Assembly (NCBI GenBank): GCA_050173015.1 | Contig: JBFXLE010000046.1 | Span: forward strand, 1 to 13,988 | Direction of reading: 5' to 3' | Source of the DNA: Calditrichaceae bacterium | GTDB taxonomy: Bacteria; Calditrichota; Calditrichia; Calditrichales; JBFXGD01 | Length of the DNA stretch: 13,988 nt | Shown here: piece by piece, positions 1,751 through 13,905 of the stretch | Position numbering within the stretch: position 1 is the stretch's first letter | How the letters are laid out: every line of letters begins with the position of its first letter | Notes under the pieces: model-generated | What the model saw: only the letters and a program-made list of their open reading frames with translations | Told to the model about the DNA's origin: nothing | Database searches by the model: none | Made by a program: the position numbers and the translations under genes

Positions 1751-3730
1751 TTATAGGATTTCGATGCCAATATCTCTGAGATACTGATATGTCTCATCAT
1801 AGAATTCAGATTTTCTAGTTAAGTCATCTTCAACACCGGCTGGAACAACTATAACCATCCCTTGCCTTGCTCTGGTTAAAAGTACTCTATATGCGTTTTT
1901 TAGATATCTTTTTCGATCATCTTTATTTATTCTGTACCATTTCTTTCCAACAAAGGAGAATGTTTTCCAACCATCTTTTGAATACCGAAAATCTGCATCC
2001 CAAGTGACGCAAACCCAATCAAGTTCTAATCCTTGAATATGAAATTCAGTCGCCACGTCTTCTAGATAATATGACGATCTCACATCATCTTTCTCATTTA
2101 AAAACCAATGAATTGGATTTATCGGTGATTTTACATCAATCGCATAAGGTTTTAGCCTCTGTGCTTGTGAAGAAACCGTTATTCCATATCTTTCGCTACC
2201 CCTTGCTTTTTCTTTTAACCATTTTTTAGCTTTAGTAAGGTCTCTTGTTAAGACCATTGGATACTTCTTTTTAATCATTCTATATACATCCCGAGCTTTT
2301 TCTATTTCTAAATCAAGAAGATATTTTACAAATAAAGAAACATTTTCCGCCCGAAAAGAACGCATCGAAACAGCCAGATGTAAATCTGCATTTTTATTAA
2401 CGTAATTTCTTCCTTCAAGTAGTGTCAAAGCTTTGCCAGCCGCATACTCGCTATCTGTTAATTTATCCGAAATATATATATGCCAATGTGGAAATACATT
2501 TACTAAAGATTCAATCCATTCTCCTATTCCCGCTTCTCCAGTATTAATTTCTTGACCTCCTCCCACCAGGCAGACGATGACAGCCCAATCTTTATGCCTA
2601 TCAAGACAGGAGACTAAAAATTCAGGCTCGGAATGAATAAAATCAGGTACACCCTTCTTTCGCTTCATAAACCCCGATGTTTGTTCTCTGTTCCATGCCC
2701 GCTGTGCTTCATCGAATATAGTGACATGATCAAATGGAGGGGATGACTTTTGAATTAAGCATTCATCTCTAAAATGATGAACGTTTTGAATAAACATCTT
2801 TACTTCTCTAAAAATATCACCTTTTCTCTTTTTATTACCTTTTTCCTTTTCACGCTTCACCCTGTCGCGGGTAAGTGCTTCTCTTAATATTGAAACAAGG
2901 GGACCATTTCCTGATAAGAAGACACTTGTCGATTTTTTCTTTTTATCTAAATATTTAGTAGCGATATCCAAACCAACTAACGTTTTTCCTGCCCCTGGTA
3001 CTCCTGTAACAAAACAAATAGATTTGTAACCATTTGCTTTAGAGGCATCAATGATTTTACCGATCGCATTACTTGTTCTACTTAGATTAATTGCGGATGC
3101 ATCATTTCTAGATATTTCCACGACAGAATGATTATTATAAAGAGCCATTGCAGCCTCTATAATAGTAGGAGTAGGCGAGTACTTACCTGTCGCCCATCTA
3201 TCTAAATCAATTCTCTCACCATCTGCAAAAATAAGTACATTTTCTATCACTTCTTTCAGTGATGTTGGATTTGCCTTTATCGGAAAAATGATGTTATCGT
3301 TATGTGGTGTCGTGGAAATTTCAATTAAACTACTCTGACTCTCGGTAGCAATTAATATTGGTGCAATGAAGTGTTCATGACTGGTTTCGTGAAAATTCTT
3401 CAAGTCAAGACAATAGTCCATTACTTGGTCAATAGCACTTGAGTTAAATACTTTTTCACCTACTTTGAATTCCAATACAAAAATAACATTTTTGATTAAA
3501 ATTACGACATCAATTCTACTTCCCATTCTTGGAATAGAATACTCAAAAAAGACCCGACCATCAAAATTGTTTAAATTTTCTTTTAGGATATTTATTTGCT
3601 GAATCCAGGCATTTTTTTGTGTCAGCTCTAAGGAGAATTCATTGTTTTGAGACAGAATACCTAAAATTTCGTTAGCATTATTTTTTAAAAAACCAGATAG
3701 CGAATTGGAGTAAAAATATCTTTTCATCAT
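1751..3730 (-). CDS. DUF2075 (Schlafen group 3-like) SF1 helicase with N-terminal PD-(D/E)XK-type nuclease domain
   Basis: N-terminal E..RID-(x)-LEFK and QxxxY (QVMDY); Walker A GVPGAGKT; Walker B IFDEAQR; helicase motifs QGLELD and YRVLLTRAR. The ORF is open to 3775, but ATG-ATG at 3730/3727 (MMKRYFYS) seems the more likely start. Confidence 0.88.
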
Positions 3731-4096
3731 CCGTGGCCGATCTTCCTCAGTTATTCCAACCGAATTGTATAACATTTTAGGGCAAATATCATACTTAGAT
3801 TTATGGAGTAAGCATTTGAAAAGCCATTTAAATGTTTAATTTATAGGCAATTTCCTAAATTTTTAGAAGATGTTCCGCAATAAATCACATAGACACTCAT
3901 TCACAATAACGTTATTAATATAGAATATGCATTAAATATTTCCAACAAAATATAAGCCTTATGATTATTAAATTTACTTTAAACTTCTTGGGGATCACAA
4001 AAGATTTTTAGTCTTTTCCATGTTCCAATTGTTCTATCGATGAAATACTGCTTTCCATCTCTGTTGTTTCTGCTTCAATTTGCATAAATAACAATA

Positions 4097-4216
4097 CGGA
4101 AGGGGTGAAACCTTAGTAGCATGATTTGTCCCCTGATCATCTGCGACCCCGTCGGGGTCCTACAATCACCGCGGAACTCTCTCTTCTACAAAGATGTGAC
4201 GCCTATGGCGTCGGGT
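4097..4216. repeat. REPIN/REP-like multi-hairpin element, copy 1
   Basis: Hairpins GACCCC-gtc-GGGGTC and GACGCC-tat-GGCGTC, GTAG/CTAC tetranucleotides, TTCTACAAAGAT; direct repeat of 4283-4404. Confidence 0.75.
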
Positions 4217-4282
4217 TTATATATCCAGTCCATTTAACATTGTTACATCAACCCAGGGTTTTCAATTTATACGTTAAGCCTA

Positions 4283-4404
4283 ATCCCGAAGGGATGAAAT
4301 TTTTGTAGAAAAACAAACCCCACACCATTTCGCGACCCCGACGGGGTCGTACAATTACCGCGGGAATCCAGTTCTACAAAGATACGACACCTACGGCGTC
4401 GGGT
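4283..4404. repeat. REPIN/REP-like multi-hairpin element, copy 2
   Basis: ATCCC-gaa-GGGAT; TTTGTAGAA (4302-4310) inverted with TTCTACAAA (4372-4380); central CGACCCC-gac-GGGGTCG; terminal GACACC-tac-GGCGTC. Confidence 0.78.
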
Positions 4405-4425
4405 GGTTAATTTAAATGGAATTTA

Positions 4426-4682
4426 CTTCCCCGATTAAATTTTGGCGTTCCCCGTAAGTGAGGCAGACTTCCCCGGTGAAACTTTTTCTTCCCCGGGTGG
4501 TGAGGGACCCTCCCCGGTAAGAATATGGGGCTCCCCGGTGAACCGGTACCCCTTCCCGCCGGCTTTGACGCCTTCCCCGGGAGTGAGGTGATGCTTTCTT
4601 CTTGAAAAGTAACGCTTCCCGGGAGAGTGTGACCTTCCCCGGAAGAGAGTGACCTTCCCCGGGGCGGAGGTACCCGCCCCGG
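4426..4682 (-). repeat. 13-unit interspaced short-repeat array, period 20-21 nt, core CCGGGGAAG (plus strand CTTCCCCGG) with 11-12 nt variable spacers
   Basis: Plus-strand cores start at 4426, 4447, 4468, 4488, 4509, 4530, 4551, 4572, 4593 (degenerate), 4614, 4634, 4654 and 4674; spacings are 21,21,20,21,21,21,21,21,21,20,20,20. Confidence 0.85.
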
Positions 4683-4699
4683 AGCGGTCTGGAGCTATA

Positions 4700-5458
4700 T
4701 TATTGTTCATTCAAGCTATCTGTTTCTTGTATATTTTTGTTGTCCGGTTTGGTGTTCTTTTGACGATGATATTTGCTGGTATAGCCTTTTAGTCTTTGCT
4801 GATTTCGCCAGAATACATACTGTCCGCACTCGCGTACCGCGTCCACCGCTTCTTTTAAGTACGTGTAGGCTTTGTCCCGTGTAATTTTGTTAATGTTTCT
4901 ATCCTGACGGTCACCGGTAACAATGGCCAGAAGCTGGGCCATTTCATCGGCAGCGGTCGCCGCCTGTTCCAGCAAACTCATATCAAATTTTATACCGTTT
5001 AAAAGATCGCTGTTTTCTCTGCCCAGGATAGCAATGTCATTCAAATCCTGTATCATATCGGCGTGTCCGTATCCTTCATCAATTTCAGAAACGCGTTTTA
5101 GCAATTCATTGTTATCGCGGAAAGCATAGCGCAAAGCATGCAGCAACCGGTCACGTAAATCATAAATTTCGGGCGCTTTTTCTTCCCACTCTCGTCCCGC
5201 TTCTTCTCGATCATATCGTTCCTTAAACCAAATCGATTCCGCCTGACGCAACGCGCCCGCCCTTACCGATATATCCTGTACCAAATTCCAGTCCAATCCG
5301 GCTCCGGTCAACGCGTCCTTATCAGCCTGACTCCAATGGCGCAGATTTTCCGCTTCCTGTAAAAAGGTACTGATCGGCATGTTTGGCAACTTGATGTCTT
5401 CATCGGGAATCGCTTCGATCTCCGCCTGCTTTGCCGTAAAATCACTTGCATTTGACAT
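4700..5458 (-). CDS. Uncharacterised, predicted all-alpha-helical protein (252 aa)
   Basis: SD GGAGG 9 nt before the ATG; soluble amphipathic-helix composition; no signal peptide or TM segment; basic C-terminal patch (FWRNQQRLKGYTSKYHRQK). No catalytic motif recognised. Confidence 0.85.
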   Translation of the reverse strand: MSNASDFTAKQAEIEAIPDEDIKLPNMPISTFLQEAENLRHWSQADKDALTGAGLDWNLVQDISVRAGALRQAESIWFKERYDREEAGREWEEKAPEIYDLRDRLLHALRYAFRDNNELLKRVSEIDEGYGHADMIQDLNDIAILGRENSDLLNGIKFDMSLLEQAATAADEMAQLLAIVTGDRQDRNINKITRDKAYTYLKEAVDAVRECGQYVFWRNQQRLKGYTSKYHRQKNTKPDNKNIQETDSLNEQ

Positions 5459-5641
5459 AACAATTTCCTCCGTGTTTAATTAATGGTATGATTAGTAAAA
5501 TCCCCCCTTTGTCTGTTCTTTGTCTTTCATGAACTTTGTACGGATTGCCGGGATTCTTATCCGCATAAATGTCCCTTTTAGCATGAAATGTATAGTGTTT
5601 GTCTTTGTCCATAACGGTAAAAAAGTACTTCAATGATGTAT

Positions 5642-5683
5642 AAAAAAAATGCCTGTTTATACCGGATGGGGATTAAACAGGCA
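5642..5683 (-). terminator. Intrinsic terminator-like hairpin ~185 nt upstream of the 252-aa gene
   Basis: Minus strand reads TGCCTGTTTA-(14 nt)-TAAACAGGCA followed by T8. Confidence 0.6.
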
Positions 5684-6004
5684 ACGCGTTTTAGATTTTC
5701 TCGTTTTATATTGCAAAGAAGATGATAAAAAATGTAAATAGCTGCCGGAGCAGTTGATATTTTGGAAACAAGCTGCAAAAAATATAAATCATTGTTTAGG
5801 AAATGGCAAAGCTAAAGAAATAATTTTTGACATTTTAATAGATACTAAATTCCAAATTATGCCCATCATTCAATCACCTTAACCATGTAAAGGTGGATAG
5901 CTCAACGTTTAGACAGTCTTGATTTGCTGTTCTTTTACCCTGATCGAGAAAAACAAAGAATCATCTTCTCTTGCTCCCAACTTCAGGAATGGATTTCTGT
6001 GACC

Positions 6005-6958
6005 CGGCGCCCATATGGGGACGCCCCGACTCTTAACTCTTAACTCTTTTCTCTTAACGCTCTTAAATTCTTACTTCCTACTTCCTACTTCTTACTTTTT
6101 TGTTCTCAGCATTTTCCCAAGCAAGCAGAAGATCCCTGCGGGATGACATGCTGTGTTGATTGTCAGCTACGGGCGCCCATATGGGACGCACCTACTCTTA
6201 ACTCTTAACTCTTTTCTCTTAACGCTCTTAAATTCTTACTTCCTACTTCCTACTTCTTACTTTTTTGTTCTCAGCATTTTCCCAAGCAAGCAGAAGATCC
6301 CTCCGGGATGACACAAGTGTGTTGTCTAACAGGTAAGGTGCCTCTGCTCTTTACTCTTCTCGCTTAACTATTCTTACTTGTCCAAACTATGATTTATCTG
6401 ATGATCTGAATACTCTGATTTCCAATTTCTTAATCATGGTCATCATTTAATCATTCTAATCAGAGTTCAGACAACTTCTTACTTTTCATCTCTTCCCAAG
6501 CAAGCAGAAGATCCCTGCGGGATGACATGCTGTGTTGATTGTCAGCTACGGGCGCCCAAATTGGGACGCACCTACTCTTAACTCTTAACTCTTTTCTCTT
6601 AACTTTTCCTACTTCTTACTTTTTTGTTCTCAGCATTTTCCCAAGCAAGCAGAAGATCCCTCCGGGATGACATGCTGTGTTGATTGTCAGCTACGGGCGC
6701 CCATATGGGACGCACCTACTCTTAACTCTTAACTCTTTTCTCTTAACGCTCTTAAATTCTTACTTCCTACTTCCTACTTCTTACTTTTTTGTTCTCAGCA
6801 TTTTCCCAAGCAAGCAGAAGATCCCTGCGGGATGACATGCTGTGTTGATTGTCAGCAAAGGGCGCCCATATGGGGACGCCCCGACTCTTAACTCTTACAC
6901 TCTTAACTCTTAACGCTCTTAAAATTCTTACTTCCTACTTCCTACTTCTTACTTCCAC
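6005..6958. repeat. Mosaic (BIME-like) tandem repeat with a ~165-bp unit: REP-like hairpin, 7-mer microsatellite, and ATCCC/GGGAT hairpin module
   Basis: TTCCCAAGCAAGCAGAAGATCCCT(G/C)CGGGATGACA at 6114, 6279, 6493, 6638 and 6803; GGCGCCCA..TGGGACGC..C(T/G)AC at ~6005, 6171, 6550, 6695 and 6860; each REP is followed by CTCTTAA/CTTCCTA/CTTCTTA runs. Confidence 0.92.
6379..6473. repeat. Imperfect long inverted repeat with ~42-bp arms, inside the mosaic array
   Basis: Left arm TGTCCAAACTATGATT...CTGATT (6379-6420); right arm AATCATG...AATCAGAGTTCAGACA (6432-6473). Confidence 0.7.
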
Positions 6959-7888: not shown

Positions 7889-8212
7889 TCAGTGAGAATG
7901 CTCTTCGAGCGCTTTCTTCATCCGTTCCCGTGATTCATCATTTAACGTCACATCCGGCAGATTCTCCTCCTTCTCCAGTTCAATCGAATATTGGTGAATC
8001 ATATCGTGCATCGCTCTTAGCTGCCGGAGATAACGCTCGCATAGTTTGCAGGTCAAAATATGTATCCTGATCATGATCCGGTCATACAGCGAGATGCGTC
8101 TGTCCATGGATTCCGACATTTTCATGGTAATCACATCGCACGCCGGCATCACTTTGGACATAAAAAACATAATAATCGCCATGAGGCCGTTCAGTATCTT
8201 TTTGATCATCAT
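7889..8212 (-). CDS. zf-HC2 (ZAS) zinc-binding anti-sigma factor
   Basis: C..IT...S...D..(x)..HILTCKLC (HxxxCxxC); start overlaps the sigma stop codon (ATGA). Confidence 0.88.
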   Translation of the reverse strand: MMIKKILNGLMAIIMFFMSKVMPACDVITMKMSESMDRRISLYDRIMIRIHILTCKLCERYLRQLRAMHDMIHQYSIELEKEENLPDVTLNDESRERMKKALEEHSH

Positions 8213-8814
8213 TTATCCTTTTTTGTTTTTTTCCCAAACCAATTGAATTCAAGACAATGCCTTAACTGGGCGCGGGCCCTGTGAAGTAAAACCCATAAAT
8301 TAGACGAGGTTATTTTTAATTCCTTACAAATGTCATCGGAGCTGATCTCATCGATTTCCCGCATGGAAAACACCGCCGCCATCTTCGCCGGGAGCAGGGA
8401 GATGCATTCGCGCAAAATACGCATAAATTCTTTCTGGCTGATGGCGTCTTCGGGATGTTCCCCCCAGTCGGACGGTCCCCGTTCTTTATCCCAGTGGCCC
8501 CGTGTAATGCCGCCGGTTTTAAAATCATCGGCAGGATCAAATTCACCATGTTCCGGAACTTCATGCTCTTTCCGGCGGCTGCTTTTCCGGTACTGATCGA
8601 TGATTTTGTGTTTTAGAATGCTCACAAACCAGGTGCGTTCCGAACTTTTCCCGTCAAAATTGGATTGCGATTTCAACGCGGCAAGAAAAGTTTCCTGAAC
8701 TAGGTCTTCAGCGAGAGTCCTGTCGTTCACACGGGCGAAAGCATAGCGGAAGAGAAAATCGCCGTACAATTCAACCCATTCCGGCGGATTTAACGAATTT
8801 TTTTTTGAAGCCAA
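8209..8814 (-). CDS. ECF sigma-70 family RNA polymerase sigma factor (TIGR02943 / Neisseria sigmaE-like)
   Basis: Region 2 AEDLVQETFLAA...TWFVSILKHKIIDQYRK; linker GHW....P..W...PE; region 4 ICKELKITSSNLWVLLHRARAQLR. TTG start with GGAG SD. Confidence 0.93.
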   Translation of the reverse strand: MASKKNSLNPPEWVELYGDFLFRYAFARVNDRTLAEDLVQETFLAALKSQSNFDGKSSERTWFVSILKHKIIDQYRKSSRRKEHEVPEHGEFDPADDFKTGGITRGHWDKERGPSDWGEHPEDAISQKEFMRILRECISLLPAKMAAVFSMREIDEISSDDICKELKITSSNLWVLLHRARAQLRHCLEFNWFGKKTKKDK

Positions 8815-13780: not shown

Positions 13781-13905
13781 GGGCGCCCAAATTGGGACGC
13801 CCCAACTCTTCACTCTTACACTCTTAACGTTCTTAAATTCCTACTTCTTACTTCCTGCTTCTCTTAACCCACCCCGGGCCTGATAAATCATGCCCTTCCC
13901 CTCCC
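13781..13905. repeat. Dispersed copy of the REP-like hairpin plus 7-mer module, with a second REP-like hairpin
   Basis: GGGCGCCCAAATTGGGACGCCCCAACTCTT...CTTAA matches the 6550 unit; GGGCCTGAT-aa-ATCATGCCC at 13876-13895. Confidence 0.8.

Follow-up and report, generated by a model that had tools for sequence, protein, structure and literature searches.

In iteron replicons such as RctB/oriCII, a Rep protein is paired with 17-22-bp iterons at ~22-bp spacing, and specificity diversifies between coexisting systems. The centromeres of plasmid partition systems also consist of iterated sites: in the passages cited, sopC of the F plasmid (bound by SopB) is given as 12 direct repeats (PMC3177203), parC (bound by ParR) as tandem repeats that are continuous or split (PMC5016525), parS of pSM19035 as 7-10 iterons bound by omega, a protein that wraps DNA as a helix (PMC5016525), and parH of TP228 (bound by ParG) as an array of short, degenerate boxes separated by AT-rich spacers (PMC3130281). 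Here we describe a locus of comparable layout in a 13,988-nt stretch of DNA (the window) from a Calditrichaceae bacterium (assembly GCA_050173015.1, completeness 97.5%), namely the entire contig JBFXLE010000046.1, referred to below as C46 of genome G000. The locus comprises a gene for a 252-aa protein and, downstream of it on the same strand, an array of short sites spaced 20-21 bp apart, which an earlier note based on the letters of the window had proposed as a candidate protein-plus-array system. Our comparisons support the association of protein and array, and we consider it slightly better than an even bet that they represent a new family of DNA-binding proteins that recognise specific sequences and assemble, in cis and in trans, on arrays of phased sites.

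The locus resembles partition centromeres in that an array of iterated sites lies beside the gene of a putative site-specific binder, and it resembles iteron replicons in that direct repeats phased about two helical turns apart lie beside the gene of a putative reader protein. Unlike partition systems, it has no ParA-, ParM- or TubZ-type nucleoside triphosphatase (NTPase) in the window or among 111 neighbouring open reading frames (ORFs) of 26 homolog loci, which also included no Rep or integrase. The protein has no ribbon-helix-helix or ParB-type helix-turn-helix family or fold and has 0 relatives on 72,556 plasmids, the modules lie on chromosomes and are accompanied by several orphan arrays per genome, the array is usually downstream of the gene, and only a 7-9-bp core is kept within the 21-bp unit. 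Unlike iteron replicons, the protein belongs to no Rep family, there is no plasmid, phage or IMG/VR context, and two-arm arrays with dyad symmetry occur. Subterminal transposase-binding repeats (Tn7/Mu ends; plant CACTA and hAT elements) consist of multiple ~20-bp sites, direct and inverted, and have non-autonomous, gene-less copies. The arrays described here share the ~20-bp sites in both orientations and the copies that keep the sites without the gene. Unlike transposase ends, the two arms are on the same side of the gene, the protein matches no DDE or other transposase family, and no target-site duplications or defined ends were seen at the window-type copies or at the leader homology. By analogy, the system would work like an iteron or centromere array, but it was not found to belong to the partition, iteron replicon, CRISPR, TIGR, ToxIN or Csr-sponge systems.

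We collected homologs of the 252-aa protein (80 loci fetched, 77 with at least 200 nt of downstream sequence) and scanned 600 nt downstream of the genes for periodicity, requiring that exact 6-mers at lag 20-22 recur at least five times and outnumber all 21 other lags (12-35) combined. This autocorrelation, which the earlier note had suggested, revealed a dominant 20-22-nt period downstream of the gene in 61 of 77 loci from several phyla and upstream of it in 5 of 75. Homologs with a downstream array in other phyla stand at ~50-60% protein identity. At the level of sequence comparison, this supports the proposal that protein and array belong together. Chains of at least five units were recovered from 54 homolog loci (the chain set). 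Within a unit, it is the core that is conserved and the remainder that drifts, and cores vary widely among loci (GCAGGAA, ACAGGA, CCCGGGAAGG, CTATCCGG, TTACTCG, CATTCCGG, ACGGGTCAAC, CGTGGGAAGG and others). A second box, GGTCA, is common to many units with unrelated cores and was found 62 times on the canonical strand versus 9 times on the opposite strand among 423 units.

The sponge RNAs CsrB and RsmZ carry many copies of a short GGA motif at ~20-nt intervals, and the arrays likewise repeat a short motif every ~20 nt. Similarity to the CsrB repeat is seen in cores such as GCAGGAAG and ACAGGA, as is similarity to the CsrA motif from systematic evolution of ligands by exponential enrichment (SELEX), and CsrA is encoded in G000. 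The arrays could then be a sponge for a host RNA-binding regulator such as CsrA (CAGGAAG/ACAGGA-like cores). However, CsrA was found in 0 of 5 other array-bearing genomes, on which ground this candidate was rejected. Furthermore, cores without GGA are frequent (e.g., CTATCCGG, TTACTCG, ACGGGTCAA), cores differ between paralogs of one genome, array orientation is variable, and no Rfam CsrB/Rsm family was matched. We regard a CsrA sponge as very improbable.

The layout of the window array agreed with the description in the earlier note (about 13 units of 20/21 nt on the minus strand, starting 17 nt past the stop codon) when examined by sequence inspection, shuffles and a chain finder. With at most one mismatch, CCGGGGAAG has 13 matches in the window, eight of them on the minus strand within 4426-4662. 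The shuffle expectation is 3.17 +/- 1.76, and 13 matches were attained in 0 of 200 shuffles. The other units of the array are more degenerate than these matches. The pattern CGGGGA[AG] has nine matches with spacings of 20, 62, 42, 21, 21, 20, 21 and 21 nt, and the chain finder joined 12 units across 4427-4696. Tandem Repeats Finder (TRF) detected just two adjacent near-identical units (4618-4662; period 20, 2.2 copies), which is the pair of neighbours that had been taken for a recent duplication. This indicates that outside that pair the core alone is kept. The stop codon of the gene is at 4700-4702 and a hairpin that heads the array begins 17 nt later on the minus strand, its 3' arm overlapping the first forward core. 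This hairpin is the sole strongly predicted stem when the array region is folded, and it is not a classical intrinsic terminator because no T-run follows. A 91-aa ORF does exist across the array (4435-4710), but the purine-rich, T-poor strand is open in all three frames for 91-95 codons, which marks the ORF as a compositional artefact. It was therefore rejected as a coding sequence, in agreement with the earlier note, which had argued against a conserved peptide. No Rfam family was matched in the window or in 12 homolog loci, and a tRNA scan detected none.

The earlier note had also called for a search for co-variation between core and protein. Such co-variation is present, specifically with the C-terminal tail. 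In a partial Mantel analysis of the chain set (45 usable of 54 loci), core and tail distances remained correlated given the protein body (r = 0.367, attained by 0 of 2000 permutations) and the correlation of core and body given the tail was -0.07. The core thus co-varies with a short basic C-terminal tail independently of the protein body. Within G000, the window gene and its paralog on C1 are 91% identical in nucleotides to about codon 228, beyond which both tail and array differ: the window tail (..KGYTSKYHRQKN) pairs with core CCGGGGAAG and the C1 tail (..KGYISQYRKRWT) pairs with core CGGAGGGAAG. The loci L056 and L059 are orthologous, with 94-100% identity from position -250 to about codon 230 and protein bodies that are 98% identical. 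Identity falls to 46-74% over the tail and array (~300 nt) and returns to 90-98% downstream. Their tails end in ..YWRKQNRKK and ..YWRKLHRKQ, and all of their units read ACAGG and GCAGG, respectively. Similarly, the bodies of L081 and L095 are 95% identical, their tails differ, and their cores are CTATCCGG and ACAAGGG. Among 18 loci with tails of the form YW[RK]K-x-[N/H]-R, the base preceding CAGG is A in 98 units, G in 7 and T in 1 for the nine Asn tails, and G in 101 units, A in 7, C in 2 and T in 4 for the nine His tails. The pairing of Asn tails with A-CAGG and of His tails with G-CAGG thus holds for all 18 of the 18 loci, with the units of one array shifting in concert. Contacts of Asn with adenine and of His or Arg with guanine are the usual ones in the major groove, and the observed pairing agrees with this rule. 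In a quick maximum-likelihood (ML) tree, tail and core types interleave within the Draconibacterium clade. Cores differ between paralogs of a single genome, and one genome can carry three or four pairs with distinct cores and tails. Judging from these alignments, tail and array are exchanged together as a cassette.

Replacement of tail and array as one block would also be expected if the arrays were a self-propagating class of sequences, satellite-like or similar to miniature inverted-repeat transposable elements (MITEs), that need no protein binding and include the 3' end of the gene in the same cassette, with the co-variation reflecting linkage. Linkage does not explain, however, how the units change in concert, and in the chemically expected direction, with one tail residue. 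Nor would such a class explain why the core is conserved while the rest of the unit drifts, or why gene and array remain linked at ~50% protein identity across phyla. We think this explanation improbable, although further observations in its favour come from orphan arrays (see below).

The spacing of the units points to DNA. The 344 unit spacings in our dataset are 19 (2), 20 (98), 21 (213) and 22 (31) bp, and their mean of 20.79 bp corresponds to two turns of B-DNA, in line with the iteron- or centromere-like spacing suggested in the earlier note. A is frequent at unit positions 16-20 (0.39-0.54), which in reversed arms are T-tracts. Relative to the gene, 22 of the 54 arrays in the chain set are forward, nine are reverse, 14 have two arms with a palindromic centre (e.g., TTCCTGTTAAACAGGA) and nine are ambiguous by a purine criterion. 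The dyads run both ways: Draconibacterium arrays diverge from the centre, and Prolixibacter arrays and one D. mangrovi array converge. The gap between stop codon and first unit ranges from 2 to 298 nt, and 22 of the 54 arrays lie beyond a terminator-like hairpin and T-run. At locus L071, a reversed array occupies the gap between convergent genes.

These observations bear on a reading in which the array acts as RNA, transcribed as a 3' extension of the gene or from its own promoter, with the basic tail binding the core RNA in the manner of an arginine-rich peptide and the transcript serving as a sponge, a scaffold or a source of processed units. The composition of the tail does resemble arginine-rich RNA-binding motifs. 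The purine-rich strand is the gene strand in the 22 forward-only loci and in the window, where the array follows the stop codon closely and without a T-run terminator. A box resembling the TAnnTTTG consensus precedes the forward arm in some Draconibacterium loci (e.g., TACACTTTG in L056). A single 213-nt contig from oligo-dT RNA-seq links the 3' end of the gene (4745-4878) to array units (4598-4639), which is weak evidence and no proof of transcription, as DNA may be present in the library. The contig evidence from other metagenomes and the RNA library came from four runs and consists of assembled contigs throughout, and hence carries no information on transcript starts, ends, strand or level. 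Against an RNA are the reverse-only and two-arm arrays, the convergent dyads among them, the terminator-like hairpins ahead of many arrays, and the position of the L071 array. There is no fold signal past the one hairpin (the window array has z-scores of -1.92 and -1.88 on the two strands relative to shuffles, mostly from that leading hairpin), and in-phase A/T-tracts and a 20.8-nt period are meaningful for B-DNA and not for RNA. An RNA-level function is thus unlikely in our estimation. A role as double-stranded DNA sites is favoured by the independence of orientation, the dyad symmetry, the helical period and the in-phase A/T-tracts. Of the two mechanisms originally proposed, a phased DNA binding-site array fits the data better, and a co-transcribed RNA cut into 21-nt units is unsupported.

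The earlier note had framed the array as repeats and spacers, and recommended comparing the spacers among close strains. G000 contains four window-type array copies, on C46, C20 (60431), C5 (198906) and C23 (68491), which agree in the head hairpin and in the order of their inter-core segments. The C20 array stands behind a 3' fragment of a family gene, and the C5 and C23 arrays have no adjacent gene. In the same-genus genome G001, a syntenic locus on C93 (flanks 83% identical) retains the array and its hairpin, and the gene has decayed to a 3' fragment. Assembled contigs from other metagenomes include arrays shorter by 84 or 63 nt (4 or 3 units) and one copy that keeps the array without the gene. 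The inter-core segments do differ within an array, as had been noted, but their sequences are conserved across all four copies and the G001 ortholog. They are therefore not CRISPR-type variable spacers and the repeat-spacer framing does not hold.

A regular layout of repeats and variable segments beside a conserved gene, often with defence genes nearby (8 of 26 loci; a DUF2075/PDC-S41 gene in the window), could also suggest a guide-RNA or antitoxin array of the CRISPR, TIGR or type III toxin-antitoxin kind. CRISPR repeats are ~23-55 nt long with unique spacers of similar size, and TIGR-Tas systems have tandem interspaced units of ~36 nt beside a Nop-domain Tas protein. Neither fits, as the earlier note had recognised: a complete unit spans 20-22 nt, of which the core takes up 7-9 nt, and the variable segments are 11-13 nt and conserved between paralogous and orthologous copies. 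No Cas family was found among 11 window proteins (Pfam), the Cas4 and Csx23 matches in a PADLOC search of three window proteins were weak, partial and inside the DUF2075 helicase, and the 252-aa protein matches no Nop family (a Nop5 coiled coil reached only Z 6.2, which is noise). In ToxIN-like type III toxin-antitoxin systems, near-identical RNA repeats lie upstream of an endoribonuclease toxin gene, unlike the present arrays, which lie downstream of the gene in either orientation with units that have only the core in common. The protein was assigned to none of the nuclease, Cas, Nop and ToxN families and to no PADLOC family. The CRISPR-, TIGR- and ToxIN-like readings were rejected on unit size, conserved "spacers" and missing families, and we give this group the least credence of all.

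Had the core array been scattered through the genome independently of the gene, a link between the two would be in doubt, as the earlier note had pointed out. This is partly the case, since three of the four window-type arrays in G000 lack an intact gene. We interpret such arrays as orphan sites or copies, because orphan cores are conserved between species and match tail types in the genome. Orphan arrays are common; they are paralogs of gene-linked arrays and exist as copies in four genomes. In one orthologous orphan pair from two species, 9 of 9 units keep an unchanged CCTG core and the T-tracts are retained, and intergenic DNA outside the array has diverged. A search with the pattern CAGGR x3 found five arrays in a complete Draconibacterium chromosome, two of them beside a family gene (one match to the reversed control pattern), four arrays in D. 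mangrovi, one of them beside such a gene (two control matches), and five in Prolixibacter, again with one beside such a gene (13 control matches). Five of six partial gene copies retain the 3' end, and an array follows in four of these five; the copy on G034:C64 (residues 99-217), which does not keep the 3' end, has none. An unbiased scan of G000 identified 51 regions with 20-22-nt periodicity, all of which were classified and 14 of which were inspected by eye. Of these, 21 are intergenic arrays of at least five units, in what we read as about nine core families (3 of window type, 5 of C1 type and 13 other), and the genome has only two full-length family genes and two fragments. The excess of array families over genes, the orphan copies, the retention of 3' ends and arrays by partial genes, and the metagenome contigs that have a gene-less joint or differ in unit number by 84 and 63 nt, both multiples of 21, are all compatible with the self-propagating satellite or MITE-like class considered above, as is the occurrence of 21-nt arrays with a second, apparently unrelated protein family. 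The arrays with other cores may be read by further protein families, may belong to genes missing from the assembly, or may persist without a reader.

Other-core arrays of 5-14 units without a family gene were seen in G000 at C18:68011, C11:283, C25:582, C1:259956, C31:209, C5:35811, C16:14549, C10:5741, C4:32014, C5:153217 and C6:15735. Several keep the grammar of core, GGTCA and A/T-rich segment, and some adjoin restriction-modification genes or contig ends. One other-core array lies 187 nt upstream of a gene for a 220-aa helical protein from a second unannotated family, and 220-aa homologs with upstream 21-nt arrays occur in two further genomes, which hints at a wider class. This family has two paralogs in G000 and is present in 4 of 41 relatives. 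Its arrays lie ~50-190 nt upstream of the gene (G000 C3:268601-269672, L136 1068-1323 and L137 2170-2400) and have the cores CCGGTAGAA, GACCGGTA and AAAGGCA. Alignment of the 252-aa and 220-aa families with hhalign did not demonstrate a relationship (match probability 2.6%, E 0.018).

The 252-aa protein has no match in Pfam, NCBIfam, PADLOC or PHROG, and a profile search against PDB sequences returned 0 matches at E <= 10. Its family is large, with 925 relatives among the candidates scored and 2110 clusters at 50% identity (E <= 0.001), almost all of 230-270 aa. No fused or longer forms were seen among 7999 candidates, which is weak evidence for their absence. By named source, the hosts are Calditrichaceae, KSB1, Neomarinimicrobiota, Gammaproteobacteria, Aminicenantes, Gemmatimonadota and many Bacteroidota, Prolixibacteraceae foremost. 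The family is present in five genomes among 41 relatives of G000 and has no match in the plasmid set, in phages or in IMG/VR contigs. AlphaFold2, run on an alignment of 56 rows, gave a confident all-alpha model (predicted local distance difference test [pLDDT] 90.6, predicted template modelling score [pTM] 0.76) with 12 helices, one of them 50 residues long, in keeping with the uncharacterised helical protein described originally. At the C-terminus, a short helix (229-236) is modelled, followed by disorder from residue 240. Foldseek found 0 matches at E <= 0.001 in PDB and BFVD, and the best hit of a full VIA-align scan (Z 9.6 over 94 residues) is in the noise range for helical bundles according to the tool's own note. 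In the protein atlas, neighbours were unnamed clusters only; the nearest named family, DUF6261 at 0.82, is a mere lead and is not among the Pfam families listed for members. The spacing of the invariant residues R194, R222 and Y226 is suggestive of a tyrosine recombinase (R..HxxR..Y), but 0 of 56 members match the Phage_integrase Pfam model at E <= 1 among the 25 families listed, and no recombinase appeared in the fold lists. Literature searches, supplementary files aside, returned no description of the protein family or of 21-nt arrays beside it.

In the reading that we favour, DNA binding by the 252-aa family, the array would be a series of double-stranded DNA sites to which the protein itself binds. 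In each 21-bp unit, the short basic C-terminal tail would read a core of 7-9 bp, and many units add the family-wide GGTCA box and an A-tract. With sites two helical turns apart, bound copies would sit on one face of in-phase bent DNA, and the protein may oligomerise on the array into a cooperative nucleoprotein complex. Movement of tail codons and array as a cassette could generate several orthogonal protein/array pairs per genome, and gene-less arrays may be sites for binding in trans. The module is chromosomal, patchily distributed across phyla, multi-copy and often found in variable or defence-gene regions. Candidate roles include DNA anchoring or organisation, insulation or silencing, autoregulation, and self-propagation of the module. 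A more far-reaching version, which we offer tentatively and hold at less than even confidence, is that these are an undescribed class of chromosomal protein/site-array modules with a tail code (Asn to A, His to G at one position), cassette exchange, orthogonal complexes, and orphan arrays that act as trans sites or silent donors.

Several observations weigh against DNA binding by this family. The periodicity criterion is failed by 16 of 77 loci, at least one of which (G001:C174) has a degenerate array by eye, and the 3' gene fragment G045:C22 has no visible array. The reversed-pattern control in G042 gave 13 matches versus 22 real ones. No recognised DNA-binding fold was found in the family by Foldseek or VIA-align, and no run showed expression. 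The window array, being in a single orientation 17 nt past the stop codon and without a T-run terminator, is also compatible with co-transcription. The cores of 13 of the 21 intergenic arrays in G000 belong to neither family gene present, so the family is not the sole array partner unless genes are missing from the assembly. Finally, the tail codons adjoin the array and linkage contributes to their co-variation; linkage alone is insufficient, as it predicts neither the direction nor the concertedness of unit change.

If binding is confirmed, the family would be a large group of binders (2110 clusters at 50% identity, at least seven phyla) without annotation or a recognisable DNA-binding fold. 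Its specificity would be set by about 10 residues of the tail, and single substitutions would shift it. The family would allow study of how a minimal peptide tail on a helical scaffold reads a 7-9-bp site, and could supply compact orthogonal DNA-binding parts. It would also bear on the function of multi-copy phased site arrays in bacterial chromosomes and account for a class of intergenic repeats with a 21-nt period at which assemblies of sediment bacteria break. The features of the locus are listed in Table 1.

Table 1. Features of the protein/array locus and its surroundings in the window.
Feature	Positions	Strand	Basis
Two dispersed structured repeats resembling repetitive extragenic palindromic (REP) sequences, outside the module	3776..4425	minus	genome-wide copies, hairpins
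Array of ~12-13 units 20-21 bp apart, core CCGGGGAAG, GTCAC often next	4426..4682	minus	sequence, motif search, chain finder
Perfect 9-bp hairpin/palindrome CCGGGGCGG-GTACCT-CCGCCCCGG at the head of the array	4659..4682	minus	sequence, folding
Gene for 252-aa all-alpha protein of a large unannotated family	4700..5458	minus	ORF, family and fold searches
Codons of the variable C-terminal tail (residues 227-252, after invariant G225-Y226), proposed specificity determinant	4703..4780	minus	alignment, model, co-variation
Upstream leader common to paralogs: promoter-like site, GC hairpin, terminator-like hairpin and T-run, variable 130 nt, ribosome-binding site	5459..5841	minus	homology with C1 and C4 copies

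Homology of the leader with the C1 and C4 copies begins ~383 nt upstream of the ATG. The promoter-like site is TTGCCA-17-TATATT (5781-5809), the GC hairpin (GCTGC-NNNN-GCAGC) is compensated, and the terminator-like hairpin and T-run lie at 5642-5682, ~180 nt ahead of the ATG. From its sequence, the leader may act as an attenuator or be a small RNA. In Prolixibacteraceae loci, the conserved and structured leader is unlike this one and has no Rfam match. Between the array and the next gene, the REP-like repeat is ~190 nt long, has dozens of genome copies and contains the tetraloop hairpins GACGCC-GNAG-GCGTC, GACCCC-GNN-GGGGTC and ATCCC-TTCG-GGAT. That next gene (1751-3775, minus strand) encodes a 674-aa DUF2075/Schlafen-group-3 helicase, which aligns along its whole length with PDC-S41, a candidate defence model of PADLOC (E 2e-289), and is missing from the syntenic G001 locus. 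Other G000 arrays adjoin an EcoO109I-type restriction-modification pair, a type I HsdR and a Fic protein. Across the 26 homolog loci, the neighbours are not conserved; restriction, nuclease or toxin-type genes occur in at least eight loci, and IS200-like Y1 transposases of the REP-associated tyrosine transposase (RAYT) type lie near arrays in three.

Elsewhere in the window, an ordinary extracytoplasmic function (ECF) sigma factor (Sigma70_r2/r4_2) is followed by a small zf-HC2-like putative anti-sigma factor (7889-8814, minus strand). Two places on G000 contig C43 (10142-10205 and 16579-16642) each have three tandem 21-nt palindromic units (ATATGAAGGATCGTTCATATT), in opposite orientations, which look operator-like, unlike the arrays studied. 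The window also contains, at 6006-6954 and 13805-13862, a 165-nt tandem repeat (5.6 copies) made of runs of the heptamers ACTCTTA and TTCCTAC, pieces of which are dispersed in many copies through G000 and G001. Direct repeats of a heptamer (TAACTGA) that abut one another are described from intergenic DNA of marine Beggiatoaceae, Cyanobacteria and Bacteroidetes (PMC4679880).

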